From the NCBI GenBank assembly GCA_035553775.1, contig DATMJR010000306.1, positions 1 to 30,534 on the forward strand: a DNA stretch of 30,534 nucleotides, written 5' to 3'. The position numbers were made by a program, and so were the translations under genes. The DNA is from Miltoncostaeaceae bacterium (GTDB taxonomy: Bacteria; Actinomycetota; Thermoleophilia; Miltoncostaeales; Miltoncostaeaceae). The notes beneath the pieces were generated by a model. That model was not told where the DNA came from. It made no database searches and worked only from the letters and a program-made list of their open reading frames with translations. Positions 17,126-30,534 of the stretch are shown here, piece after piece (the stretch's first letter is position 1; every line of letters begins with the position of its first letter).

Positions 17126-18028
17126 TCACCGCGCCGCGGGACGCGCCAGCGGCAGTGACGGCGCGGTGCGGATCCGCACCGCGCCCGTCGTGGCGTAGGC
17201 CACGGACTGGTGTGCGCCGAGGCGGCGCGACAGGCCGCGCGCGGCGGCCATGACCATCTCGGCCAGCTGGTCCACCCGCTCCGGGGTGACCCGGGTGACC
17301 GGGCCGCCGATGCCCATGGCGGCCACCACCCGACCGGTGTGGTCCCAGACGGGGGCGCCGATGCAGCGCAGCCCCTCGTCGTACTCCTCGTTGTCGATCG
17401 CATACCCCCGCTCACGGATGAGCGCCAGCTCCGAGGCCAACTGCTCGGCGTCGGTGATGGTGTGGGGGGTGTACCCGGCCAGGCCGCGGTCGGCGACGAT
17501 CCGGGTGATCTCCTCCTCGGGCAGGTAGGCGAGCAGCACCTTGCCCAGGTTGGTGGCGTGCACCGGGTAGCCCCGGCCGACCGCCGACGGGATGCGCAGC
17601 GCACGCCGGGCCTCGACGCGCTCGACGTAGATCGCCTCCCCCCCGTCGAGCACGGCCAGGTGGCCGGTCTCCCCGGAGTCCCGCACCAGGCCCTCCAGAA
17701 AGGGCAGGGCCTCGTCCCAAAGGTCCATCCGCTGCATCACCAGCCCGCCCAGCTCGAAGATGCGCAGCCCCAACCGGTAGCGGCCCGATCGCGGGTTGCG
17801 CTCCACCATGCCGGCCGCCTCCAGGTTGACCAGGAAGCGGTGCACGGTGGACTTGTGCAGCCCCAGGCGCTCCGCCAGCTCGCTGACGCGCAGCTCGGGC
17901 TGCTCGGCCGAGAAGGCGTTCAGGATCGCGACGGCCCGCTCGATCGCCTGGATCCGGTAGCGACCGTCCTGGGCGGGACGGTCGTCCTCGGTGCGGATGT
18001 GGGTCAGCTGCTCCATCGTGGGTCTCAC
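17126..18028 (-). CDS. IclR family transcriptional regulator
   Basis: IQAIERAVAIL, ELAERLGLHKSTVHRFL, GRYRLG, ETGHLAV, HATNLGKVLLA, RERGYAIDNEE...GLRCIGAPV. ATG 18016 is an alternative start. Confidence 0.95.
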   Translation of the reverse strand: MRPTMEQLTHIRTEDDRPAQDGRYRIQAIERAVAILNAFSAEQPELRVSELAERLGLHKSTVHRFLVNLEAAGMVERNPRSGRYRLGLRIFELGGLVMQRMDLWDEALPFLEGLVRDSGETGHLAVLDGGEAIYVERVEARRALRIPSAVGRGYPVHATNLGKVLLAYLPEEEITRIVADRGLAGYTPHTITDAEQLASELALIRERGYAIDNEEYDEGLRCIGAPVWDHTGRVVAAMGIGGPVTRVTPERVDQLAEMVMAAARGLSRRLGAHQSVAYATTGAVRIRTAPSLPLARPAAR

Positions 18029-18139
18029 AATGAGAGACGACGTCTCGTAACCGATGAGACGAACTTTTTCTACACACCGTTCTTCCCCGCAGCAAGGAGA
18101 ACGACCCGTATGCCGAACAAGCGTCTCGTAGAGTAAGAC
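18022..18139. promoter_or_regulatory. Array of GTCTC-N7/9-GAGAC palindromes (putative IclR operators) between divergent iclR and cofG
   Basis: GTCTC-ACAATGA-GAGAC (18022-18038), GTCTC-GTAACCGAT-GAGAC (18042-18060) and GTCTC-GTAGAGT-AAGAC (18123-18139). The last overlaps a TAGAGT -10-like hexamer. Confidence 0.55.
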
Positions 18140-18225: not shown

Positions 18226-19473
18226 GTGGATCACACGGACGAGATCAGGGGGGCCGGGCCCGCGTCCCGACCCGCGGCACCGGCCCTCGACGGGCTGCGT
18301 CCGGCGCTGCGGGAGGCCGTCGAGGCCGCTCTCGACGGCGCCCGGCTCGACCGCCGCCACGCCATGGCGCTGGCCGACGTGCGGGGTGCCGAGCACCCGG
18401 CGGTGTGGGCGGCGGCGGCCGTGCTGCGCGACCGCGGCCGGCCGCGCGAGGTCACCTACTCGCGCAAGGTCTTCGTCCCGCTCACCAACCTCTGCCGCGA
18501 CGCGTGCTCCTACTGCACCTTTGCGCAACACGAGGACTCCCCGCGGGCGCACACCATGAGCCCGGACGAGGTGATGGCGCTGGTGGAGGCCGGCGCCCGG
18601 CGGGGCTGCAAGGAGGTGCTGTTCTGCCTGGGCGACCGCCCCGAGGCGCGCTGGCCGCGCTACCGGGAGGTCCTGCGCCGCTTCGGGCACGAGACCACCC
18701 ACGGCTACCTGGTGGCCATGTGCCGCGAGGTGGTCGAGCAGACCGGCCTGCTGCCCCACCCGAACGCCGGCGTGCTGTCGCGCCGGGAGCTCGCCGAGCT
18801 CAAGGAGGTCTCGGCGAGCCAGGGGCTGATGCTGGAGTCCGTGGCCGAGCGGCTGTGCGCACCGGGCGGTCCCCACGCCGACGCCCCCGACAAGCGCCCG
18901 TCCACGCGCCTGGCGATGATCCGCAAGGCGGGCGAGCTGCAGATCCCGTTCACCAGCGGGATCCTGATCGGCATCGGCGAGACCGCGGCCGAGCGCATCG
19001 AGGCGGTGCTGGCGCTGCGGGACCTGCACGAGACCCACGGGCACCTGCAGGAGGTCATCGTGCAGAACTTCCGCGCCAAGGAGGACACGCCGATGGCCGC
19101 CGCCGGCGAGCCCGGGCTGATCGAGCTGATGACCGCCTGTGCGATCACCCGCCTGATCATGGGCCCGGCGATGAGCATCCAGGCACCGCCCAACCTGTCG
19201 GCCGACTACGGGCCGCTGCTGCTGGCGGGCATCAACGACTGGGGCGGCATCTCCCCCCTCACCCCCGACTTCATCAACCCCGAGGCCCCCTGGCCCAACC
19301 TCGACCGGCTCGCGCAGCTGTGCGCCGAGGCGGGCTACCCGCTGCGCGAGCGGCTGACGATCTACCCGGGCTACGTGGACGACGACGCCTGGGTCGCCCC
19401 CGGGATGCGCGATCCCGTCCGCAGCCTCGCCGACCCCGTCAGCGGGCTCGCCCGCGAGGCGGTGCCCGCGTGA
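18226..19473 (+). CDS. cofG: 7,8-didemethyl-8-hydroxy-5-deazariboflavin (FO) synthase subunit CofG, radical SAM
   Basis: TYSRKVFVPLTNLCRDACSYCTF (CX3CX2C), SQGLMLES, PFTSGILIGIGET, EVIVQNFRAK, IQAPPNL, GINDWGGISP...NPEAPWP. Start is GTG 18226 or ATG 18151. Confidence 0.92.
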   Translation: MDHTDEIRGAGPASRPAAPALDGLRPALREAVEAALDGARLDRRHAMALADVRGAEHPAVWAAAAVLRDRGRPREVTYSRKVFVPLTNLCRDACSYCTFAQHEDSPRAHTMSPDEVMALVEAGARRGCKEVLFCLGDRPEARWPRYREVLRRFGHETTHGYLVAMCREVVEQTGLLPHPNAGVLSRRELAELKEVSASQGLMLESVAERLCAPGGPHADAPDKRPSTRLAMIRKAGELQIPFTSGILIGIGETAAERIEAVLALRDLHETHGHLQEVIVQNFRAKEDTPMAAAGEPGLIELMTACAITRLIMGPAMSIQAPPNLSADYGPLLLAGINDWGGISPLTPDFINPEAPWPNLDRLAQLCAEAGYPLRERLTIYPGYVDDDAWVAPGMRDPVRSLADPVSGLAREAVPA

Positions 19474-21323
19474 CCGTCACCTTCGTGCGCCGTGCCCGCC
19501 CCGGTGCCGACGCGGCCGCCGGACGCCCCGCCGGCCTGACCACGCTCGAGGGCGGCCTGGACGCCGCCGGGGTCGCCGGGGCACTGACCGCGGGCCTGCT
19601 GCCCGTGGACACCTCCGCCGCCTGCACCGCGGCCGCCGCCTGGATCGCCGACCCCGCCCGGGCACTCGCCCTGGGCGAGGAGGGCATCCCCGGCTGGCGG
19701 CTGACCGTGCGCCATGCCGGCAGCCGTGCCGAGGTGCTCGACGCCCTCGCGCGCACGGGGGCCCCCTGGCTGCGCACCACCACCGACCGGGTCGCCGAGG
19801 CCGCCTCGATCACCGATCTGCCCGGCCTCGACGCCGTGGTCTCGGTGGAGGTCGACGACCTCGACGCGGCCGTCGCGGCCGTCCGCGCCGGGGCGCTCGA
19901 CCTGGTGATCGGCGGGTGGTCCGACGACGCGCTCGGCGCCCTCCGCGACGCGCTCGCCCCCGCGCGGGTCGTGGAGCGCACCGCCCTGCCGCTGGGCGTG
20001 GAGATCGACGCCGCGCGCGCGGCGCTGCCCGCCGCTGCCTTCACGGCCTGGTGCCACCTCACCGACGGCGCCGGTGCGGCGCGGCCCCGCTACGTCTGGG
20101 CACCCGGGCGCGACATGGACCCACCGGTGCCGGCACGGCGGCTGTCGGCCGAGTGGGCCGACGCGGCCTGGACCGGCGCGGCCCCCGAGCCGTCGCTGGA
20201 GGACCTCCACCCCACCCTGGCCGGGATCCTCGAGCGATCGCTGGCCGGCACGCCGCCCACCCGCGACGAGGTCGAGGCCCTGTTCCGGGCCCGCGGCGCG
20301 GAGGTCGAGGCGATCGCCGGGGTGGCCGACACGCTGCGCGAGCGGGCCTGCGGCGACGTTGTCACCTACGTGGTCAACCGCAACATCAACTACACCAACC
20401 AGTGCTACTTCCGGTGCGGCTTCTGCGGCTTCTCCCGCGGGCCGAAGTCGGCCGGGTTCCGCGACGAGCCCTACATCCTCGAGACCCACGAGGTGGTGCA
20501 CCGCTCGGTGGAGGCCTGGGAGCGGGGCGCCACCGAGGTGTGCCTGGTGGGCGGCATCCACCCCCGGTTCACCGGCGACTTCTACGCCGGGGTGCTGGAG
20601 GCCATCAAGGCGCGGCTGCCCGAGATGCACGTGCACGGGTTCACGCCGCTGGAGGTCTGGCAGGGGGCCGCCACCCTGGGCGTGAGCGTCGAGCAGTTCC
20701 TGACGCGGATGCGCGACGCGGGCCTCGGCACACTGCCGGGCACGGCTGCCGAGATCCTCGACGACGAGGTCCGCGCATTCCTGTGCCCGGACAAGATCAC
20801 CACCGCCGAGTGGGCGGACGTGATGATCACCGCCCATCGGCTCGGGCTGCGCGCCACCAGCACGATCATGCACGGCCACATCGACCACCCCCGCTCCTGG
20901 GCCAACCACTACGAGGTGCTGCGCCGCATCCAGGAGCGCACGGGCGGCTTCACCGAGTTCGTGCCCCTGCCGTTCGTGCACATGGGCGCACCCATCTACC
21001 TGCAGGGCCTGTCGCGCCCGGGCCCCACCTGGGACGAGGTGGTGCTGATCCACGCCGTCGCCCGCATCGCCTTCGACGGGCTGATCCCCAACATCCAGGC
21101 CAGCTGGGTCAAGCTCGGACTGGGCGGCGGGTCTCGCCTGCTGCAGGCCGGCTGCAACGACCTCGGCGGCACGCTGATGAACGAGAGCATCTCGCGCTCG
21201 TCCGGCGCCTCGCACGGCCAGCTGGCCACCCCCGAGGAGCTGGAGGCGGCCATCCGGCGCATGGGGCGCACGCCCGCGCGGCGCAACACGGTCTACGAGC
21301 GACTGGAGGCGACCGCCTCCTAG
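19470..21323 (+). CDS. cofH: FO synthase subunit CofH (radical SAM) with an about 240-aa N-terminal extension
   Basis: GTG overlaps the cofG stop (GTGA). VTYVVNRNINYTNQCYFRCGFCGFS, LPGTAAEILDDEVR, STIMHGH, TEFVPLPF, NIQASWVKLG, NDLGGTLMNESISR. Confidence 0.9.
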   Translation: MTVTFVRRARPGADAAAGRPAGLTTLEGGLDAAGVAGALTAGLLPVDTSAACTAAAAWIADPARALALGEEGIPGWRLTVRHAGSRAEVLDALARTGAPWLRTTTDRVAEAASITDLPGLDAVVSVEVDDLDAAVAAVRAGALDLVIGGWSDDALGALRDALAPARVVERTALPLGVEIDAARAALPAAAFTAWCHLTDGAGAARPRYVWAPGRDMDPPVPARRLSAEWADAAWTGAAPEPSLEDLHPTLAGILERSLAGTPPTRDEVEALFRARGAEVEAIAGVADTLRERACGDVVTYVVNRNINYTNQCYFRCGFCGFSRGPKSAGFRDEPYILETHEVVHRSVEAWERGATEVCLVGGIHPRFTGDFYAGVLEAIKARLPEMHVHGFTPLEVWQGAATLGVSVEQFLTRMRDAGLGTLPGTAAEILDDEVRAFLCPDKITTAEWADVMITAHRLGLRATSTIMHGHIDHPRSWANHYEVLRRIQERTGGFTEFVPLPFVHMGAPIYLQGLSRPGPTWDEVVLIHAVARIAFDGLIPNIQASWVKLGLGGGSRLLQAGCNDLGGTLMNESISRSSGASHGQLATPEELEAAIRRMGRTPARRNTVYERLEATAS

Positions 21324-21325
21324 GG

Positions 21326-21349
21326 GGGCGCCGGGGCTACCCGGCGCCC
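21326..21349. terminator. Hairpin between convergent cofH and fprA
   Basis: Perfect 10-bp inverted repeat gggcgccggg-gcta-cccggcgccc overlapping the fprA stop. Confidence 0.55.
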
Positions 21350-22758
21350 TGCTGCTTGCGCTCGGCGAGCGCGGCCAGCATCTCCTCGACCTTGCTGAAC
21401 TTGAGCCGCGGGCGCTGGCCCACCTGGCCGCGCTCCTGCTCGAGCATGTCGATCACCTGCCAGTCGTCGTAGGAGACGAAGTCCTGGCGGCGCTCGCGCA
21501 GCAGCCGCTCCAGCACCGCCCGCGGCGGCACGTCGGGCTTGCTCAGCCGGCCGGCCTTGAGGTCGTCCAGCAGCATCTCGACGGTCTCCTGGGAGTCCGG
21601 CTTGTTGGTGCCGATGATCCCCCGCGGCCCGCGCTTGATCCACCCCACCACGTACTCGCCGCGGACCACGTCGCCCGAGATCGGGTCCTGGATGCGTCCG
21701 GCCTCGTTGGGGATCACCCCGTGCAGGGCGTCGAAGGGGATGCCCGGCAGCGGGATGCCCTGGTAGCCGATCGCGCGGAACACCAGGTCGACGGGGATCG
21801 TCTCGGTGTCGTCGGTCACCCGGGCGCGCAGCTGGCCGTCCTCGCCCCGGTAGAGCTCGTTGCGCGCCACCACGAGCGCCTCGACGCGCTCGCTGCCGAG
21901 GATCTCCACGGGTGAGACCAGGAAGCGCAGCACGACCCGGCGCGACGCGCCCGAGAGCGGCCTCGCGGCGTAGCGGTTGAGCACCTCGATGTTGGTGTCG
22001 CGGGTGCGGTCGGGCATCCGCGCGACCTGGTGGGCGCTCAGGGGGTCGAGGGCGGCCTCGTGCGGGTCCACGACCACGTCGCAGTCGCGGATCTCGCCGA
22101 GCTCGCGCAGCTCCTTGGTGGTGAACGCGGCCTGCGCCGGACCGCGCCGGCCGAGCACGATGATCTCGCGGATGCGGCTCTCGGCCAGCGCCGCCAGCGC
22201 GTGCTCGGCGATGTCGGTGGTCGCCAGCTCCTCCGGCGGCGAGGCCAGGATGCGGGCGAGGTCCATGGCCACGTTGCCGTTGCCCACCACCACCGCGCGC
22301 TCGCCCGACAGGTCAAACGACAGCGAGCGGAAGTCGGGGTGGGCGTTGTACCAGCCCACGAACTCGGTGGCCGAGTGGCTGCCGGGCAGGTACTCGCGCG
22401 GGACGCCCATGCGCCGGTCGGTGCGGGCGCCGACCGCGTAGATGATCGCGTGGTAGTAGGCCGACAGGTCCGCGTGGGTGATGTCGCGGCCGAGTTCGAC
22501 GTTGCCGAAGAAGCGGAACTCCGGATGGGCGGCGATCCGGTCGTACACCCGCGTGACCGACTTGATCTTCTGGTGGTCGGGGGCGACGCCGCCGCGCACG
22601 AGGCCGAACGGGGTGGGCAGCCGGTCGTACATGTCGACCTGGACGAACAGGTCGGGCTGGTTCTGCAGGTGCTCGGCGGCGTAGAACCCGGAGGGTCCGG
22701 AGCCGACCACCGCGACGCGCAGCGGCTGCGGGGGGGTCCCGAGCGGGCTGTCGGTCAA
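21337..22758 (-). CDS. fprA: NADPH:ferredoxin reductase, adrenodoxin-reductase type (FprA-like)
   Basis: VAVVGSGPSGFYAA, RLPTPFGLVRGGVAPDH, GNGNVAMDLARIL, GRRGPAQAAFT.KEL, GWIKRGPRGIIGTNK. TTG start with GAGGAGG RBS. Confidence 0.92.
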   Translation of the reverse strand: MTDSPLGTPPQPLRVAVVGSGPSGFYAAEHLQNQPDLFVQVDMYDRLPTPFGLVRGGVAPDHQKIKSVTRVYDRIAAHPEFRFFGNVELGRDITHADLSAYYHAIIYAVGARTDRRMGVPREYLPGSHSATEFVGWYNAHPDFRSLSFDLSGERAVVVGNGNVAMDLARILASPPEELATTDIAEHALAALAESRIREIIVLGRRGPAQAAFTTKELRELGEIRDCDVVVDPHEAALDPLSAHQVARMPDRTRDTNIEVLNRYAARPLSGASRRVVLRFLVSPVEILGSERVEALVVARNELYRGEDGQLRARVTDDTETIPVDLVFRAIGYQGIPLPGIPFDALHGVIPNEAGRIQDPISGDVVRGEYVVGWIKRGPRGIIGTNKPDSQETVEMLLDDLKAGRLSKPDVPPRAVLERLLRERRQDFVSYDDWQVIDMLEQERGQVGQRPRLKFSKVEEMLAALAERKQQGAG

Positions 22759-22822: not shown

Positions 22823-23560
22823 TCAGCCCCGGAACAGGTCGTGCGCGGCCGCGCGCACGAGCGCCCCGGCGCCGCCCGGCGACGGCCGGGCGACCAGGCC
22901 GGAGACCACCACGACCGGGGTGCCCCCCGCCTTGGGCATCAGCAGTCCGGAGGCCGCCGCCAGCTCGTCGGCGAGCGCCTGCTCGGTGGCCACCAGCACG
23001 CGGCCCTCCCGGTCGGTCTCCCCGCGCCGGTCGAGCACCGGCTCGATGCCGGCCACGCCGATCGCGATGTTCACCAGGCCGCGGCGGAAGGCCCGGCCGT
23101 GGGTGTCGGTGACCACCACCCCGACCCGCCCGCCGACACGGGCCGCGACGGCCGCCTGCAGGCGGCGCGCCGAGGCGTCCGGGTCGCGCGGCAGCAGGAT
23201 CGCGCACCCCGGGGGGGCGTTGGAGGTGTCGATGCCGGCGTTGGCGCACACGAAGCCGTGATGGGTCTCACAGATCAGGGTGGCGCCGCGGCGGCGCACG
23301 ATCCGGCGGCTCTCGGCCAGGATCAGTGCGCACAGGCCGGGGTCCTTGCCGGTCAGGCCGGCGAGCGCCCGCGCGCGGGCGTCCGGGGCGACCGCCGCGA
23401 GCGCGACCACGCGGCCCTCGGCCTTGGAGACGATCTTGTGGGCCACCACCAGCACGTCGCCCGCCACGACGCCGTCGGCCGCCGCGAGGCCGGCGAGGAG
23501 GCCGGGCAGGTCGTCGCCGGGACGCACCTCGGGCACGCCCGGCAGCGCGCGCAGCCTCAG
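22823..23560 (-). CDS. cofE: Coenzyme F420-0:L-glutamate ligase, stand-alone (no nitroreductase domain)
   Basis: LPG.PEVRPGDDL, VVAHKIVSKAEGR, ETHHGFVCANAGID.SN, LLPRDPDASA, TDTHGRAFRRG, ADELAAAS, P.VVVSG. Likely CTG start at 23560; alternatives are GTG 23608 and TTG 23629. Confidence 0.92.
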   Translation of the reverse strand: MRLRALPGVPEVRPGDDLPGLLAGLAAADGVVAGDVLVVAHKIVSKAEGRVVALAAVAPDARARALAGLTGKDPGLCALILAESRRIVRRRGATLICETHHGFVCANAGIDTSNAPPGCAILLPRDPDASARRLQAAVAARVGGRVGVVVTDTHGRAFRRGLVNIAIGVAGIEPVLDRRGETDREGRVLVATEQALADELAAASGLLMPKAGGTPVVVVSGLVARPSPGGAGALVRAAAHDLFRG

Positions 23561-24231
23561 GGGGCCGTCCCCACGGTCAGCCGGCCCGCCAGGCCGTGAC
23601 GGACGCACACCTCCGTGGTGCGGCACCAACCGTGGGCGCCGGCGGCGATCGGTGCCAGGTCCGCGGGGGTGTCGACGTCCAGGGCGATCCGCGGCAGCGC
23701 CAGCTCGGTCAGCACCAGCCCGCGCTCGCGGGCGAGCGCGGCGTGCTGGGCGCGCGAGTCCGGACCCAACCGGGTCGGCATCGCCTCGGCGGGGTCCAGC
23801 AGCAGGGCGTTGGTGCCCGTGCCGTCGCGCGAGGGCACCAGCACCACGCCGCCCGCCACGGCCGGGGCGGCGGCCACGATCGCGGCCAGGTCCTCCGGGC
23901 GGGTCAGGGGCAGGTCGGCGGTCAGCACCAGCGCCCGCCGGCCCTGGCGGGCGGCGTCGGCGCGCCCGATCGCGACGGCGGCGTTCATCCCCTGGGGTGG
24001 CGCGTGGTCCGGCAGCAGCCGGGCGCCGAAGCCCGCGGCCAGCTGCCCCGCCGCGGGATCCGAGGTCACCACCAGGAGCGCGTCCAGCGCCGCGCAGCCC
24101 CGGCAGGCGTCGAGCAGGTCGGCCAGCATCGCGGCCTGCAGGTCGCGGCGCTCGGCGGGCGCCAGCACCGCCGCGAGCCGGCCGAGCGCGCGGCCGAGGG
24201 GCTTGACCGGGATGACCGCCTGGACGCTCAC
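23557..24231 (-). CDS. cofC: Phosphoenolpyruvate/2-phospho-L-lactate guanylyltransferase CofC/FbiD
   Basis: VIPVK....RL, ML.D.L, VVTSD, GMNAAV, ADLP, DGTGTNAL, LGPDS..H, LDVDTPADL. GTG overlaps the cofD stop. Confidence 0.92.
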   Translation of the reverse strand: MSVQAVIPVKPLGRALGRLAAVLAPAERRDLQAAMLADLLDACRGCAALDALLVVTSDPAAGQLAAGFGARLLPDHAPPQGMNAAVAIGRADAARQGRRALVLTADLPLTRPEDLAAIVAAAPAVAGGVVLVPSRDGTGTNALLLDPAEAMPTRLGPDSRAQHAALARERGLVLTELALPRIALDVDTPADLAPIAAGAHGWCRTTEVCVRHGLAGRLTVGTAP

Positions 24232-25154
24232 GCGGCCGCCGCGTCCAGGCACGCGGCCGCGAGGCGGGCCCGCGCGGGGCGGTCGGGCATCAGCGCGTCG
24301 GTCAGCACCGGCCGCACGTCGAGGTCGGCCACCGCGTCGGCCTCCCCGGCGTCGCGCGCGTCGAGCACGAACGTCCCCGCGACGTCCGCGTAGATGCGCG
24401 CCATCTGGGTCGCCGAGCACTCGGGGTAGCCGGCGCCGGCCAGGAACCGGTGGGCCGGCCCCTCCACGGGACGCCCGCCGATGATCGGGCTGACCGCCAC
24501 CGTGTCGGCGCGCCGCGCCTGCAGCGCCGCGCGCAGGCCGGGCACGGCCAGGATCGTCCCGATCGAGACGACCGGGCTGGAGGGGGCGATCACGATCCGT
24601 TCGGCCGCGGCGATCGCCTCCAGGGCGCCCGGCACCGGCGCGGCCTCGGTGACGCCGTCCATGCGGATGGCGGTGATCTCCTCGCCGGCGCCGTCGCGGA
24701 CCAGGTACTCCTGGAAGGTCCGCTCCCCCGTCGGCGTGGTGATGCGCGTGCGCACCGGCGCGTCGCACATGGGCAGTACGCGGGCCTCCACCCCCAGGCG
24801 CGCGCACAGCTCGGCGGTGACCCGGTGCAGCGGCACCCCCTCGCCGAGGCGGACGGTGCGGTAGAGGTGGGTGGCCAGGTCGCGGTCGCCGAGGCCGAAC
24901 CAGGCGGGCAGCCCGTAGGTCGCCAGGCCCTCCAGGCAGCGGAAGCTGTCGTCGGCGTAGCCCCACCCGCGCGCGTCGACCACGCCGGCGAGCACGTAGG
25001 TGCAGATGTCGAGGTCCGGGCAGACCCGCAGGCCGTAGAAGTCGCCGTCGTCGCCCGTGTTGACGATGGCCGTCAGCGCCTCCTGGCCGACCACCTGGGC
25101 GAGCCCGTCGACCATCTTCGAGCCGCCGGTGCCGCCCGACAGGACCAGGATCAC
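24228..25154 (-). CDS. cofD: 2-phospho-L-lactate transferase CofD/FbiA
   Basis: LSGGTGGSK, VNTGDD, PDLD...Y.LAG, WFGLGDRDLATH, LPMCD..VRT, FQEY.VR, VAVSPIIGG..V.GPA. Confidence 0.95.
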   Translation of the reverse strand: MILVLSGGTGGSKMVDGLAQVVGQEALTAIVNTGDDGDFYGLRVCPDLDICTYVLAGVVDARGWGYADDSFRCLEGLATYGLPAWFGLGDRDLATHLYRTVRLGEGVPLHRVTAELCARLGVEARVLPMCDAPVRTRITTPTGERTFQEYLVRDGAGEEITAIRMDGVTEAAPVPGALEAIAAAERIVIAPSSPVVSIGTILAVPGLRAALQARRADTVAVSPIIGGRPVEGPAHRFLAGAGYPECSATQMARIYADVAGTFVLDARDAGEADAVADLDVRPVLTDALMPDRPARARLAAACLDAAAA

Positions 25155-25157
25155 GGA

Positions 25158-26066
25158 TCAGGCAAGGGGCGTGCGCTCATCGGGGCCGGGGGATGGTATC
25201 CGCCCCCGGGCCCCCGCGCCCACGACGAGCCAGAGCCCGAGCGCCACCCCGACGACGCCCGCCACCAGCGACGCGCCCGGGGTCTCCCCCAGCAGCGGCC
25301 AGGCCGTCAGCACGCCGACCACCGGCACCAGGAAGAACCAGGCCGAGACCTCGCCGGCCGGCGCCAGACGCAGGGCCACGTAGAAGAGCGCCAGGGGCGC
25401 CGCCGACCCCGCCGCGCCCAGCACCACCACCAGCGCCGCGGTGCTCGCATCGACGTCGACGGGGCCGCGCTCGGCGGCCAGCGAGGCGAGCGCCAGCACC
25501 CCGGCGCCCAGCAGCATCTGCCACCCCGCCAGCGCCATCGCCGACCCGGTGCCGCGCAGGCCGCGCACGGCCACCACCGTGCCGATCCCCCAGGCGAAGG
25601 CGCCGCCGACCACCACCAGCGCCGCCGGCGACACGGTCGGCGGCCACAGCCGGTCGTCGCCCACCGCCACCGCCACCCCCACGAACCCGACCCCCAGGCC
25701 GGTCCACTGCAGCCGCGTGAGCCGGTCGCCGAGGAACAGGGCCCCCAGGGCGGCGACGAACAGCGGGTCGGTGTTGGCCAGCACCGCCGCCAGGCCCGCC
25801 CCCTCGTGGGCGATCCCCCAGAAGGTCGCCCCGTAGAAGAGCGTCGTCTGGGTGAGCGCCAGCCAGAACAGGCTCGCCGCCCCGACCCCGGGTGCGACCG
25901 GGTGCCCCCGGGCCACCAGCACCGCCAGCACGATCAGCCCGGCGGCGCCCAGCCGCGCGGCGGCGGCGGCCAGCGGCGGCAGGTCGTCCACCAGCCAGGC
26001 CGACGGCACGTAGGCGGAGCCCCAGCACAGCATCGCGCCGGCGGCCAGGAGGCCGGGGGACCTCAG
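25158..26066 (-). CDS. EamA/DMT family transporter
   Basis: C-terminal about 300 aa of track ORF 25158..27818. Shows CWG, AAARLG, GLAAVLANTDPLF.AAL, LFLGDRL...W.G...GF.GV, AW..G and PV.GVL.AW.LLGE. Start is CTG 26066 (overlapping the dctM TGA) or ATG 26033. Confidence 0.88.
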   Translation of the reverse strand: MRSPGLLAAGAMLCWGSAYVPSAWLVDDLPPLAAAAARLGAAGLIVLAVLVARGHPVAPGVGAASLFWLALTQTTLFYGATFWGIAHEGAGLAAVLANTDPLFVAALGALFLGDRLTRLQWTGLGVGFVGVAVAVGDDRLWPPTVSPAALVVVGGAFAWGIGTVVAVRGLRGTGSAMALAGWQMLLGAGVLALASLAAERGPVDVDASTAALVVVLGAAGSAAPLALFYVALRLAPAGEVSAWFFLVPVVGVLTAWPLLGETPGASLVAGVVGVALGLWLVVGAGARGRIPSPGPDERTPLA

Positions 26067-28060
26067 TGCTCGACGAGGTTCGACAGGGCGAGGACGACCT
26101 CCGACGGCAGGTACGTGACCAGGAACAGCACCAGGATGCTCACCAGCAGCCAGGGGATGATCGTGATCGACAGCCGTTCGATCGGCACCCGGGCGATGCT
26201 CGACACCAGGAACAGCACCAGCCCGATCGGCGGGTGGATCAGTGCCAGCACGAGGTTGAACACCATGATCAGCCCGAAGTGCACCGGGTCGATGCCGAAC
26301 TCGAGCGCCGCCACGGGCGCCAGGAACGGCGCCAGGATGTAGAGCGCCGGCAGGGGCTCGATGAAGATGCCCACCAGCAGCAGCATCACGTTGACCACCA
26401 GCAGGAACACGTACTTGTTCGTGCTGATGCCGGTCATGAACTCCTGGAGCGACTCCCCGAACCCGTCGCGGAACAGCGCCTTGGCGAGGATCGTCGAGTC
26501 GCCCAGCAACAGCATCACCACGCCCGCCTCGAGCCCGGCCAGGATCAGCGCATCGGGCAGCTGGCGGGGCGAGATGGTGGCGTACATGAACAGCCCCATC
26601 CCGATCGCCACCAGCGCCGCCACCGCCGCCGACTCGGTCGGGGTGAACACGCCGGTGAAGATGCCGCCGAGGATGATCACCGGGATCAGCAGCACGGGCA
26701 GCGCCGACCGGCTGGTGCGCACCACCTGCCCGATGCCGGCGAACCGCCGCCGCGGGATCATGTCCAGCCGGCGCACGACCACGTAGACGGTCGCGGCCTG
26801 GAACAGGAACAGCAGGATCTCGGCGAACACCCCCGACAGCAGCAGCGCCGAGATCGACGCCGAGCCGGGACCGGTGACGATCGCCCCGTAGACGATGAAC
26901 ATCACCGAGATCGGCCCGATCGGGCCCTTGATCGAGGCGCCCGCGACCACCGCGGCGGCCACGTCGCGGCGGTAGCCCTCGCGCTCCATCGCCGGCACCA
27001 GGATCGGGGTCATGATCGCCGCATCGGCCTGCGCGGAGCCGGAGATGCCCGAGGCCAGCGCCGAGGTCAGCTGGCAGACGTAGGCCATGCCGCCGCGCAG
27101 GTGACCGACCAGCGCGGCCGCGAACGCGATCAGCCGGGTCGACATGCCGCTGGCGTTCAGGACCTCGGCGACCACGAGGAACATCACGATCACCAGCAGC
27201 TCGCCGCCACCGGTGAGGCCCATCGCGCCCTGCGTGGTGCTGAACGGGGCGATCAGGTCGGGGCTGGGGTAGAACGACAGCCCCAGGAACTCGGGATGGA
27301 GCGCCAGGATCCCGACCACGCTCAGCATGAACACGATCGGCATGCCGGCCAGCGTGAGCGTCACGAAGATGATCCCGAGCACGATCAGCTCGGACACCTG
27401 CGTGAACTGCAGCAGCGAGTAGCAGACCGCCCAGAGCACGGCGGCCATCACGAGCGCGCCCCCCAGTCCCTGGGCGGCGTCGCGCAGCCCCGCCCGCCCG
27501 CGCGCGGCCACCGGCCGCAGCGCCGTGACCGACTGGGTGAGGTAGTGCAGGGTGATGAAGTAGTAGCCGACGGTCATCGAGACCAGGGCGTAGAAGAGCG
27601 CCACCGAGATCGACTGGGCCGTCTGATCGCGCCAGGCCTGCGCGAACGGGAACTGGGTCGCGCGCACGCACGAGTAGGCCAGCAGCACCCCCAGCGACAG
27701 GGCCGCGAAGGTCTGCACCGAGCGCTGCCACCCGGCCGGCCCCCGGTGGGAGACGAACGTGATCACGGTGACCGCGCTGCGGCGCACGGCCAGCGAGACG
27801 CCCATCCAGATCGCCCACAGGTAGGCGAACCGCGCCAGCTCCTCCGAGCTGAAGATGGAGAAGCCGGGCACGTTGCGCGTGAACACGTTGCCGGCGATCG
27901 CGAACATGATCAGCAGCACCGCGCCCACCGTGATCACGCGGGCGATCGCCACCGCCGCGCGCGCGTAGACCTCGAGCACGCCCTCGACGCGCCCGAGCAC
28001 CTGGGCGACCACGGGCTCGGGCGACCGCGCCGGGGCCTGCTCTGCCGTGGTCGTGGTCAT
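26063..28060 (-). CDS. dctQM: Fused TRAP transporter small and large permease (DctQ-DctM)
   Basis: N-terminal DctQ-like SEELARF...W...G.SLAVRR; DctM motifs GMPI.F.L, L.GHLRGG, SGISGSA.AD, PAM.REGY, GGIFTGVFTPTESAA, GIDPVHFG, HPPIG..LF. Confidence 0.92.
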   Translation of the reverse strand: MTTTTAEQAPARSPEPVVAQVLGRVEGVLEVYARAAVAIARVITVGAVLLIMFAIAGNVFTRNVPGFSIFSSEELARFAYLWAIWMGVSLAVRRSAVTVITFVSHRGPAGWQRSVQTFAALSLGVLLAYSCVRATQFPFAQAWRDQTAQSISVALFYALVSMTVGYYFITLHYLTQSVTALRPVAARGRAGLRDAAQGLGGALVMAAVLWAVCYSLLQFTQVSELIVLGIIFVTLTLAGMPIVFMLSVVGILALHPEFLGLSFYPSPDLIAPFSTTQGAMGLTGGGELLVIVMFLVVAEVLNASGMSTRLIAFAAALVGHLRGGMAYVCQLTSALASGISGSAQADAAIMTPILVPAMEREGYRRDVAAAVVAGASIKGPIGPISVMFIVYGAIVTGPGSASISALLLSGVFAEILLFLFQAATVYVVVRRLDMIPRRRFAGIGQVVRTSRSALPVLLIPVIILGGIFTGVFTPTESAAVAALVAIGMGLFMYATISPRQLPDALILAGLEAGVVMLLLGDSTILAKALFRDGFGESLQEFMTGISTNKYVFLLVVNVMLLLVGIFIEPLPALYILAPFLAPVAALEFGIDPVHFGLIMVFNLVLALIHPPIGLVLFLVSSIARVPIERLSITIIPWLLVSILVLFLVTYLPSEVVLALSNLVEH

Positions 28061-28081
28061 GTGACCGTCCGGGGGAACCGG

Positions 28082-28115
28082 CCCCCCGGCGGCGGCGCGG
28101 CCGGCCGCCGGGGGG
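28082..28115 (-). other. Intercistronic stem-loop between dctP and dctQM
   Basis: Perfect 12-bp inverted repeat ccccccggcggc-N10-gccgccgggggg. Hairpins after substrate-binding-protein genes commonly set mRNA stoichiometry (inference). Confidence 0.6.
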
Positions 28116-28138
28116 ACGTCGTCAGAGTCGCAGGTCTA

Positions 28139-29260
28139 TCAGCCTGCCAACTCGCAGGAACCCGTTCGGGAGGTCGGGAACGGCGGCGGTGCCGCCGGGG
28201 CCTGCGCGTCCTCCTTCAGGTCCTGGATCTGCTGCAGGAACCGACCGGTGGTCTCGTCCTGCGACAGGGACGTGTACGCCTGCTCGGCCCGGGCCTGCAG
28301 GCCCTGCACCTCGGCCGGGGTGGCGGTCACGAACTGCACGCCGCAGTTGACCAACTGCTGCGGCAGGTCCGATCCGGTCGACACGATCTCGATCGAGCGT
28401 GCCGGCACCTTGGCCGCCGCATCCCGGAGGATCTGCTGGTCCTCCTCGGACAGCCGCTCCATCACCTGGTTGTTGATGACCAGGGCGGTCGGGAACGGCC
28501 ACAGGTTGACGTTGCCGGTCACGAACCGCGCGACCTCGTAGTACTTGTTGGTCGCGATCAGGCCGAGGTTGGCCTCCATGCCGTCGACGGTGCCGTTCTT
28601 CAGGGCCTGGTACACCTCCGGCAGCGGCAGCGGGTCGGCCTCGGCGCCCAGCGCCTGCAGCCCGGCGGCGAGCACCTTGGACTGCGGGGCGCGGATCTTG
28701 GTGCCGCGGAACGACGCCACCGAGTCGAGCGCGTTCTTGGCGCCGACCGGCTTGCGCAGACCACCCTCGTGAATGGTCAGCACGGTCACGTCACCGGCCG
28801 TCTCCGACGCCGATTCGGCCATCGCCTGGCCGATCTCGCCCTCGAGGATCTGGCTCTCGAGCTGGTAGTTCGAGACCAGCAGCGGCGCCTGCAGGGCCTG
28901 GAAGGCGTTGATGCCCGCCGAGTCCCAGATGGCCGTGGAGATCGTGGCCATGTCCACCGAGCCACCGCGGACGTCCGCCAGCAGCTGGGGCTCCGGCTGC
29001 GGGTAGCTCGGCCGCGTGTTGATCGTGATCCGTCCGCCGGAGGCCCGCTCGACCTCCTGCTTGAAGAAGTCGATCGCCTGCCCGTACGGGTGCTGGGCGG
29101 TGGTCACGTAGGCGAGGGTCAGCTCGACCGACTCGCCCCCACCCTCCGTGCCGCTGCCCGCCTCGTCGTCGTCGTCGCCACACGCGGCGACGCCGAGCGC
29201 CAGGGCAAGCGCCGACACCATCACCAGCACCCGTGTGGTCCACGAGCGTCGTCTCACCAT
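28139..29260 (-). CDS. dctP: TRAP transporter substrate-binding lipoprotein DctP
   Basis: Lipobox LGVAA-C, EVERASGGRI, VRGG.VDM, GTKIRAP (carboxylate-binding Arg), EVYQALKNGTVDGME. ATG 29260 has a GGAGGGG RBS. Confidence 0.92.
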   Translation of the reverse strand: MVRRRSWTTRVLVMVSALALALGVAACGDDDDEAGSGTEGGGESVELTLAYVTTAQHPYGQAIDFFKQEVERASGGRITINTRPSYPQPEPQLLADVRGGSVDMATISTAIWDSAGINAFQALQAPLLVSNYQLESQILEGEIGQAMAESASETAGDVTVLTIHEGGLRKPVGAKNALDSVASFRGTKIRAPQSKVLAAGLQALGAEADPLPLPEVYQALKNGTVDGMEANLGLIATNKYYEVARFVTGNVNLWPFPTALVINNQVMERLSEEDQQILRDAAAKVPARSIEIVSTGSDLPQQLVNCGVQFVTATPAEVQGLQARAEQAYTSLSQDETTGRFLQQIQDLKEDAQAPAAPPPFPTSRTGSCELAG

Positions 29261-29342
29261 GCGCCCCCTCCAGAACCGGTTGTCCATGTGTCGTTCGCGG
29301 CGAGGACGCCCGGGGCCGACGGCACGGCGGGCATCCGGCGCG

Positions 29343-29372
29343 AGCCTACGGAGCGCCCAAAAAGGTTGTCAA
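29343..29372 (-). promoter_or_regulatory. Sigma70/HrdB-type promoter TTGACA-N18-TAGGCT for the dctP operon
   Basis: Plus-strand tgtcaa at 29367-29372 and agccta at 29343-29348. Confidence 0.65.
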
Positions 29373-29467: not shown

Positions 29468-29497
29468 TTGACGCTCGCAGGGTACGTGACATATGCT
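29468..29497 (+). promoter_or_regulatory. Sigma70/HrdB-type promoter TTGACG-N18-TATGCT for the ADC-like gene
   Basis: TTGACG at 29468-29473 and TATGCT at 29492-29497. Confidence 0.6.
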
Positions 29498-29616
29498 GCT
29501 TTCGACGTCGAGGGCCCCGCCCGCCCGGTCCGCGAGACCGCAGGTGGCAGGTGGACCGCCCGCGACGCCTGCGATTCGTGTGCAGCTGCCTCTTCTATCT
29601 AGGGGGACGCCAGCCT

Positions 29617-30534
29617 ATGGCCGAGCAGTTCGCCGTGACCCAGATCCCCGGCGCCGAAACGGGAGAGATCCCGCCCTCGCCGGTGGACCGCGACGAGAAG
29701 ACCGCGATTATTTACCCGCTGGTCGACCCGCTCTGGGACATCGACACGCTCCCGCTGACCTACACCAACTCCCGTTGGTCGGCTTTCTTCTACCGCGCGG
29801 ACGAGAAGCACCTCCGCCGGGTTCTTCCCGACTGCCTTGAGCTCGAGGACGACGTCGTCGAGTTCTGGTACGTCGACCACAACCACACCATGCTCGGCCC
29901 GTACGGCGAGATGGGTGTGACGGTCGCCGCCTCCTACAAGGGCGGGGACGGCAACAAGACCTACGCCGGGTACTACCCCTACATGTACCTGACGCAGGAC
30001 GCCGCTATCGACGCCGGTCGCGTGCTGGGCTTCCCCAAGAAGGAGGCCTTCATCCGCGTGCTCGAGCACGGTGGCAACCCGGACGACGGGTACGGGGTCT
30101 ACGACGGGAAGAACTACCAGTTCGACTACTTCTCGTTCCTCATGATCCGCAACGGCTACGTGCTTCACTCGGCGACGGGTAAGTACGACGATGCGGACCT
30201 GTCGGCCAAGCCGGCCTTCTATGGCAACACCGCCTACGGCCGCATGAACATGAAGGTCATCACCTCCCCGGACATCGCTCAGTCCGAGTGGCAGCTGGTG
30301 CACCTGCCCTCCCTGGTGACCAAGGACCTGGCCACCGCGATGGGCCGCCCGGACACCGAGGGTTCGCACCGCTTCCAGGTGAAGCCGGAGTCGATCCGCA
30401 CCGCCTCGCCGGCCAGCATCAACTGGTTCATGCAGGCGACGCCGTACGACAACCTCGGCCACGAGCTGCCTCCGAAGGAGATGATCGGTCTGATGACCTT
30501 CTCCTTCGACCTGATCATCCCGGCGGGCGAGGTC
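29617..30534 (+). CDS. Acetoacetate decarboxylase-like (ADC) superfamily protein, 3'-truncated by the window
   Basis: Absent from the track because no stop codon lies within the window. Open frame MAEQFAV... contains FFYRAD...LRRVLPDCLE, LGPYGEMG, YYPYMYLTQDAAIDAGRVLGFPKK (Schiff-base Lys motif); RBS AGGGGG. Confidence 0.82.
   Translation, partial: MAEQFAVTQIPGAETGEIPPSPVDRDEKTAIIYPLVDPLWDIDTLPLTYTNSRWSAFFYRADEKHLRRVLPDCLELEDDVVEFWYVDHNHTMLGPYGEMGVTVAASYKGGDGNKTYAGYYPYMYLTQDAAIDAGRVLGFPKKEAFIRVLEHGGNPDDGYGVYDGKNYQFDYFSFLMIRNGYVLHSATGKYDDADLSAKPAFYGNTAYGRMNMKVITSPDIAQSEWQLVHLPSLVTKDLATAMGRPDTEGSHRFQVKPESIRTASPASINWFMQATPYDNLGHELPPKEMIGLMTFSFDLIIPAGEV

Follow-up and report, generated by a model that had tools for sequence, protein, structure and literature searches.

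A block of six genes on the minus strand of a 30,534-nucleotide stretch of DNA (contig DATMJR010000306.1, hereafter the window) joins two transporters to the assembly genes of cofactor F420. The host is an uncultured soil metagenome-assembled genome of the Miltoncostaeaceae (Thermoleophilia), a family of uncultured soil and freshwater actinobacteria. Judged from sequence comparison, the transporter genes appear to be accessory parts of the F420 locus that this one family has conserved together with their promoter. Because the G+C content of the window is about 75%, genes were called by third-position G+C and then checked against profile libraries. The block opens with dctP (28139-29260; Pfam PF03480, E 1e-47; alternative ATG at 29287), the lipoprotein solute-binding subunit of a DctP-type tripartite ATP-independent periplasmic (TRAP) importer, followed by dctQM (26063-28060; PF04290 and PF06808; TIGR00786, 294 bits), its fused small and large membrane subunits. 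The next gene, eamA (25158-26066), encodes a permease of the drug/metabolite transporter (DMT)/EamA type (PF00892 twice, E 5e-39); its CTG start at 26066 overlaps the dctQM stop, and an alternative ATG lies at 26033. Then come cofD (24228-25154), encoding 2-phospho-L-lactate transferase (TIGR01819, 285.8 bits, cut-off 257.45), cofC (23557-24231), encoding the guanylyltransferase (TIGR03552, 152.3 bits, cut-off 105), and cofE (22823-23560), encoding a single-domain gamma-glutamyl ligase of 245 amino acids (TIGR01916, 264 bits, cut-off 180.65). An earlier reading of the letters alone (the sequence-only reading) had proposed this order on one strand, with gaps of 78, -4, 3, -4 and -4 nt; Pfam and NCBIfam matches confirmed all six genes, and every gap was reproduced from the sequence.

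The stop-start overlaps of the block read CTGA or GTGA. Two of the -4 nt junctions are CTGA overlaps that place a CTG start at eamA (26064-26066) and at cofE (23558-23560), both on the minus strand. These starts were accepted because orthologues have start codons at exactly the same positions, where ATG, GTG, CTG or ATA is found; in one relative (locus L028), CTG is the sole possible start of cofE because a stop lies five codons upstream of it. The variation of start codons at CTGA overlaps suggests reinitiation at non-canonical starts in the family.

To follow the linkage across the family, the neighbourhoods of EamA orthologues, of cofD and of dctQM orthologues were fetched from relatives and the window proteins mapped onto them; counts refer to 111 family genomes, with adjacency judged by coordinates. 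A transporter gene lies directly upstream of cofD in all 57 cofD-positive genomes. Three layouts are found, each flanked by cofD-cofC-cofE-fprA on one side and by a divergent pair of acetoacetate-decarboxylase-like (ADC) genes on the other: that of the window, dctP-dctQM-eamA; dctP-dctQM; and eamA only. In one genome (G011) dctP alone stands next to cofD, with eamA elsewhere in the genome. The arrangement spans 17 genera, over which EamA identity falls to 52-66%, and the dctQM orthologues at cof loci are 58-74% identical. In a tree built from CofD, CofE and FprA joined end to end, loci of different layout are intermingled, implying at least two losses of TRAP (genera g2 and g19) and at least four losses or relocations of EamA; a third TRAP loss, in G084 within genus g25, is seen by coordinates. 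No locus lacks both transporters. Among the 111 genomes cofD is present in 57 and cofH scores over its cut-off in 56, the EamA orthologue is found in 47 (43 of them cofD-positive), and the cof-linked type of dctQM (at least 58% identity) in 28 (26 of them cofD-positive). Both orthologues are almost confined to cof-positive genomes, which is the co-occurrence that the sequence-only reading had proposed as a check.

The first transporter gene is preceded by promoter P1 (29343-29372, minus strand), which in the window consists of TTGACA (29372-29367), an 18-nt spacer and TAGGCT (29348-29343) ahead of dctP. The sequence-only reading had called it near-consensus. This holds for the perfect -35 hexamer but not for the -10, which matches TATAAT at only three of six positions, and for that reason P1 was not called by a generic promoter scan of the window. 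The element is conserved in every related locus: a GTGCCGATGTTGACAAC block with a TAGGGT-like -10 (TTGACAA-N17/18-TAGGGT-like) is kept before the first transporter gene in all three layouts. In genus g19 (e.g. L055:8109-8489), two to three direct repeats of CTACGGTGTAAGG lie just past the -35 and -10 of P1, before eamA; they may be an operator or leader element. P1 and the oppositely oriented ADC promoter (TTGACG-18-TATGCT) occupy a common divergent control region of 110-130 bp, and the ADC promoter is as conserved as P1, its motif GCAGCATATGTCAC being present in all cof-linked loci.

A second element, P2 (25193-25201, minus strand), is an extended -10-like sequence, GGATACCAT, inside the 3' end of eamA and 38 nt before the cofD start. 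It includes the TACCAT hexamer (25198-25193) that the sequence-only reading had flagged as a possible internal promoter of cofDCE, and it is the best-conserved non-coding element of the locus. Its motif nGnTAnnnT (typically TTGGTAGACT) precedes cofD in 37 of 40 distinct loci, in most of them 32-48 nt ahead of the cofD GTG, whether eamA, dctQM or dctP lies upstream. Since this motif is so widely kept, the caveat is strongly supported, and cofDCE-fprA probably has a promoter of its own besides any read-through from P1. An internal promoter does not, however, make the adjacency incidental, as that caveat had supposed. One of the two outcomes named in advance as telling against the sequence-only reading, independent transcription of cofD, looks likely; the other, EamA and TRAP orthologues unlinked to cof genes elsewhere, is clearly not what the family presents.

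Past P2, a short upstream open reading frame (uORF; MSARPLPDP-stop, 25151-25180, minus strand) ends in a TGA that overlaps the cofD GTG. In most loci, as read by eye from those printed, an ATG or GTG 8-14 nt past P2 opens a frame of about 8-13 codons. Its stop mostly falls on the start of cofD, although one locus has it 10 nt earlier, and the encoded peptide shows no conservation. Only 6-7 nt separate the -10 from cofD in genus g19, the geometry of a leaderless mRNA. With P2 and the uORF conserved between eamA and cofD, the block does not look like a single operon served by one promoter. No terminator-like site of note was found between the genes of the block; because these genes also overlap or abut, P1 transcripts would be expected to read through into the cof genes. 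In public RNA data the window sequence was matched in DNA runs only, and fragments of relatives occur in metatranscriptome contigs. One such piece of 2.8 kb runs from 176 nt before cofD through cofE; among the matches listed, all of them fragments from relatives, no piece bridges eamA and cofD.

The transporters lie between two sets of genes, and the phyletic pattern indicates which of them the TRAP genes follow. ADC pairs are present in 71 of the 111 genomes, and in cof-negative genomes the pair persists without TRAP, EamA, P1 or the ADC-promoter motifs. The cof-negative genome G012 retains dctP in three and dctQM in five frame-shifted pieces beside intact ADC genes, the relics being followed by 1.1 kb without coding signal. 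Other cof-negative genomes retain the ADC pair although TRAP is absent, so TRAP is not bound to the ADC genes; because it also decays beside intact ADC genes in G012, the cof-linked TRAP system tracks cof. The proposal that the transporters belong with the cofactor genes thus gains support from the linkage in 57 of 57 genomes, from the conserved P1 and from the loss or decay of transporters upon loss of cof.

In the window, the first of the two ADC genes and its promoter occupy 29468-30534 on the plus strand (PF06314; promoter scan). The tandem ADC-like pair beside the locus shows 80-94% identity behind a conserved strong promoter, and some genomes carry a second pair elsewhere (e.g. G007:C3:177982-179968). 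A paralogous TRAP system (53-57% identity) is encoded elsewhere in both cof-positive and cof-negative genomes. In cof-negative genomes of genus g25 (L088:7876-17433) it has a luciferase-like monooxygenase, a flavin mononucleotide (FMN) reductase and a LysR regulator as neighbours, and a gene for a Ddn-type protein lies some 6-8 kb away. This context was considered as a clue to the substrate of TRAP, and these neighbours indicate no clear one.

Proteins that depend on F420 are more widespread in the family than its synthesis. Fno (TIGR01915, over cut-off) is encoded in 100 of the 111 genomes, that of the window included, and Ddn-type deazaflavin-dependent proteins of the flavin/deazaflavin oxidoreductase A group (FDOR-A; TIGR00026) in 96, as against cofD in 57. 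Four closed or near-closed cof-negative genomes (G024, G089, G006 and G012) are without cofD, cofE, cofG and cofH and keep both Fno and a Ddn-type protein; in the closed ones the two genes lie about 3 kb apart (e.g. G024:C1:1611112-1615165). Because these proteins are kept where cof genes are missing, about half of the family may depend on external deazaflavin, and the contrast between near-universal Fno and Ddn-type proteins and the patchier cofD suggests auxotrophy for F420 together with cross-feeding. Producers have the cof-linked transporters and these apparent consumers lack them, so a general role in F420 uptake is unlikely; the distribution fits supply of a precursor or export.

The biosynthetic pathway itself is complete at the locus, since cofG and cofH, which encode the FO (7,8-didemethyl-8-hydroxy-5-deazariboflavin) synthase, accompany cofDCE and lie on the plus strand, convergent on the block (18226-21323; TIGR03550, 447 bits; TIGR03551, 485 bits). 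CofD, CofC, CofE, CofG and CofH all score above the curated NCBIfam cut-offs, so that FO synthase is present in the same genome. CofE is short and devoid of the FbiB C-terminal domain, as it is in all 20 other Thermoleophilia loci sampled. In an alignment to 6bwg and 7p97, CofC reads RLGPDS with Gly at the position of S162 of Mycetohabitans CofC (G163 of Mycobacterium tuberculosis FbiD), and at the neighbouring specificity position a Met aligns with L92 of the M. tuberculosis and M91 of the Mycetohabitans protein. Ser at the specificity position marks the use of 3-phosphoglycerate (3-PG; PMC8764529), and the window protein does not have it. From the Gly and the Met a 2-phospholactate or phosphoenolpyruvate (PEP) route is predicted rather than 3PG-F420; as far as this residue predicts, classical F420 is the expected product.

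About 250 N-terminal residues of the cofH frame (19470-20250, plus strand) have coding-type composition and no Pfam match, and in relatives the cores of cofG and cofH lie the same distance apart. A Pfam scan of the window genes placed an IclR-type regulator beyond cofG/cofH. The spacer between iclR and cofG holds three GTCTC..(G/A)AGAC palindromes (18022-18139), with no further site of this kind anywhere in the 30.5-kb window. Shared regulation of the block with cofGH was considered and set aside, as the palindromes are confined to that spacer and none lies near P1.

Downstream of the block, a gene for an NADPH-ferredoxin reductase of the FprA type follows 64 nt past cofE on the same strand (21337-22758; PDB 1lqt, M. 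tuberculosis FprA, E 5e-131; ribosome-binding site GAGGAGG, TTG start). It follows cofE in every family locus with downstream flank except one (L074/G011); elsewhere, none of 20 cofD loci from other Thermoleophilia families and none of 76 metagenomic cofD loci showed such an fprA neighbour. FprA could act on an intermediate of the pathway or supply electrons to CofG and CofH, which are radical S-adenosylmethionine enzymes. The idea that it stands in for the missing FbiB C-terminal domain was dropped, since short CofE is class-wide and the FprA linkage family-specific.

As for the transported compounds, the TRAP system is of DctP type by its composition, a PF03480 binding protein encoded together with DctQ and DctM domains. 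DctP has a lipoprotein signal with the lipobox LGVAAC; a lipoprotein binding subunit is expected in Gram-positive bacteria, and the window protein agrees. Its AlphaFold model (predicted local distance difference test score 86.8) matches solved TRAP binding proteins with template-modelling (TM) scores of 0.8-0.9, the nearest being sugar-acid, sialic-acid and isethionate types at 19-28% identity. When DctP is aligned with the Pasteurella SiaP homologue (4mmp), the Arg in its motif EGGLR pairs with that in NGTRQ, and all of 18 homologues have this Arg. We take it to be the equivalent of SiaP R147, the clamp for the ligand carboxylate (R147 mutants are named in PDB titles). Because this clamp is kept, an organic acid would be the expected ligand. 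None of the top 50 structural matches of the DctP model is described as a lactate-binding protein, and the attempt to name the ligand from structure failed in that the model is confident but its structural neighbours bind many different acids.

EamA, with two PF00892 repeats in about 300 amino acids, has the make-up of an EamA/DMT permease. It fell into none of the characterised subfamilies searched (YedA, YddG, EamA exporter, 2A78), the best NCBIfam match reaching 67 bits against a cut-off of 230, and in the protein atlas it joins generic DMT clusters only. In some loci of genus g19 (L048:2277-4742) eamA is tandemly duplicated, and the second copy has a 210-residue C-terminal extension for which no Pfam or PDB match was found. 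The sequence-only reading had offered deazaflavin salvage as one role of EamA. A pure FO-salvage role is not supported: no convincing case of cofDCE without FO synthase was found among the genomes examined, the apparent ones (G046, G110, G124 and G126) all having cofG. Import of lactate and transport of FO, which the same reading had put forward, are reasonable guesses.

Taken together, the linkage points to an undescribed transport step that would be tied to F420 synthesis. On the reading we favour, the Miltoncostaeaceae F420 locus acquired transporter genes as accessory parts, and its transcription would be two-tiered. Strong P1 would drive the first transporter gene and read through into cofD-cofC-cofE-fprA, from which we infer co-transcription, and P2 with its short coupled uORF directly before cofD would give the cof genes an input of their own. 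TRAP would act as a binding-protein-dependent importer of an organic acid, and EamA as a ten-helix DMT permease that may work in either direction; both would move small molecules useful only if the cell makes F420. The first candidate, by preference, would be the C3 acid from which the link joining FO to the glutamate tail is made, carried by TRAP; to our knowledge, the origin of the lactyl linker in bacteria with short CofE is unsettled. The next candidate would be FO or a related deazaflavin intermediate, carried by EamA. We hold such a functional link between transporters and F420 synthesis tentatively, at slightly under an even chance.

Several observations weigh against this functional link. 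Neither transporter is indispensable: the EamA orthologue is missing from 14 cof-positive genomes, and in genus g19 dctQM is matched in 0 of 28 genomes at a threshold of E <= 1e-100. Unlinked EamA orthologues occur in three cof-positive (G011, G022 and G078) and four cof-negative genomes (G021, G017, G064 and G010), and unlinked EamA has no association with cof. The cof-negative genome G086 carries an intact orphan dctQM orthologue without dctP. The phyletic pattern is partly automatic, because physical neighbours are lost together in single deletions, and the finding that both transporters are never lost is statistically weak, because on a rough estimate about one double loss is expected by chance. 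From P2, cofDCE could be expressed without the transporters. No operator common to P1 and the IclR-type palindromes of cofG was found, and a search of the window region and six related loci for riboswitches or other known RNAs gave nothing credible. Outside the family, neither 20 cofD loci sampled in seven further families of Thermoleophilia nor 76 other metagenomic cofD loci showed transporters linked to cofD; at the metagenomic loci a family-trained hidden Markov model detected no EamA or TRAP. Ten polytopic membrane open reading frames scanned at those metagenomic loci belong to unrelated families or have no Pfam match. The linkage is thus confined to Miltoncostaeaceae among the loci sampled. 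The F420 pathways known to us require no imported precursor. The surroundings of EamA in cof-negative genomes, which were considered as a clue, are variable (PEP mutase-like protein, endonuclease III, MMPL, 6-phosphogluconate dehydrogenase, phosphoglycerate mutase) and uninformative.

Much of this would also be expected if the linkage were historical, with no function in common. An ancestral TRAP system and DMT permease would have come to lie between the ADC-like and the cof genes, and the order would simply have been inherited; the transporters would serve nutrition or efflux from P1, and cofDCE-fprA would be expressed from P2. The conserved P2 and its coupled uORF before cofD fit such a division, as does the single short divergent region that holds P1 and the ADC promoter. 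The dispensability of either transporter, unlinked EamA without cof association, a linkage not found beyond the family and the co-loss expected of neighbours all fall into place. Inheritance alone accounts less well for an order kept across 17 genera through repeated remodelling in which both transporters were never lost. Nor would a passenger TRAP system be expected to decay once cof is gone, as it did in G012, rather than persist, or ADC pairs to outlive the loss of cof without TRAP or P1; the stop-start overlaps, moreover, integrate the genes translationally. We regard historical linkage as a plausible account that is somewhat doubtful. If it is true, the locus amounts to no more than a well-documented F420 cluster that carries passengers.

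Two further explanations fare much worse. The sequence-only reading had considered co-induction, whereby TRAP would import a growth substrate catabolised with the help of F420-dependent enzymes from elsewhere in the genome, and cofactor synthesis, placed downstream, would rise with that substrate. The structure permits it, in that P1 could read through a block with no terminator and with gaps of no more than 3 nt at the junctions leading to the cof genes, and the genome has Fno. The pattern of occurrence fits poorly: relatives that keep Fno and Ddn-type proteins without cof do not keep this TRAP or EamA, and the restriction of the transporters to producers argues against a link to the substrate. 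Across about 40 loci the block never encodes an F420-dependent enzyme, and Pfam scans of the other window genes found no F420-dependent oxidoreductase family, as the sequence-only reading had noted. The eamA-only layouts, moreover, have no importer of TRAP kind. Co-induction is accordingly very improbable. Equally slight is the prospect that TRAP serves the divergent ADC-like enzymes by bringing in a keto acid for them and only borders cof: dctP and the first ADC gene do diverge from one short spacer, each behind a conserved strong promoter, but ADC pairs occur without this TRAP, P1 or the ADC-promoter motifs (71 of 111 genomes, cof-negative ones included), the eamA-only layouts retain the pair and lose TRAP, and in G012 TRAP decays next to intact ADC genes.

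A functional link, if real, could reach further. EamA and/or TRAP might be the first dedicated transporters of the F420 pathway, with EamA moving FO or F420-0 across the membrane of producers and TRAP supplying the linker acid, in a family about half of whose members would have to obtain deazaflavin from neighbours. The locus would then mark the producer side of a cofactor cross-feeding network; this reading is unlikely. We know of no transporter of FO, F420 or their precursors that has been characterised so far, and the family offers a defined candidate gene pair for this transport. Its producers and apparent non-producers also form a natural series for studying whether soil and freshwater communities treat F420 as a shared good.

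The enzyme set of the window is the same complete one known from bacterial and archaeal F420 clusters (cofC/fbiD, cofD/fbiA, cofE/fbiB, cofGH/fbiC; PMC8498797), and its short single-domain CofE is of the archaeal type. It differs from known clusters in having TRAP and/or EamA genes upstream of cofD under a conserved promoter and fprA downstream of cofE. In the literature, no paper was found that joins F420 with EamA meaningfully or cofD with TRAP. One likeness is the 3PG-F420 cluster of Paraburkholderia/Mycetohabitans rhizoxinica, which adjoins an ATP-binding cassette (ABC) transporter suggested to export the cofactor to the fungal host (Braga et al. 2019 in PMC8498797). In both cases a transporter gene lies beside F420 genes, and for P. 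rhizoxinica the cited passage presents cofactor transport as a suggestion only. The transporter there is of ABC type and CofC has Ser, in contrast to the TRAP importer with DMT permease and the Gly CofC of the window. A second parallel is offered by riboflavin transporters (RibM/PnuX, RfnT, RibN and ImpX), which came to light because they are encoded close to rib genes, and which exist side by side with de novo synthesis (PMC4418817); one of them, RibN, is listed as an EamA-domain protein (PMC10557607). These carry an isoalloxazine-type vitamin and cluster with its biosynthesis. In the window, neither an FMN riboswitch nor one of another class was found. Among TRAP systems, SiaPQM (sialic acid), DctPAm (sugar acids) and IseP (isethionate) have the same fold as the window system (TM scores of 0.8-0.9), the clamp arginine and a fused Q-M subunit. 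The window DctP is only 19-28% identical to the solved binding proteins, and a context of F420 genes is new for the TRAP family.

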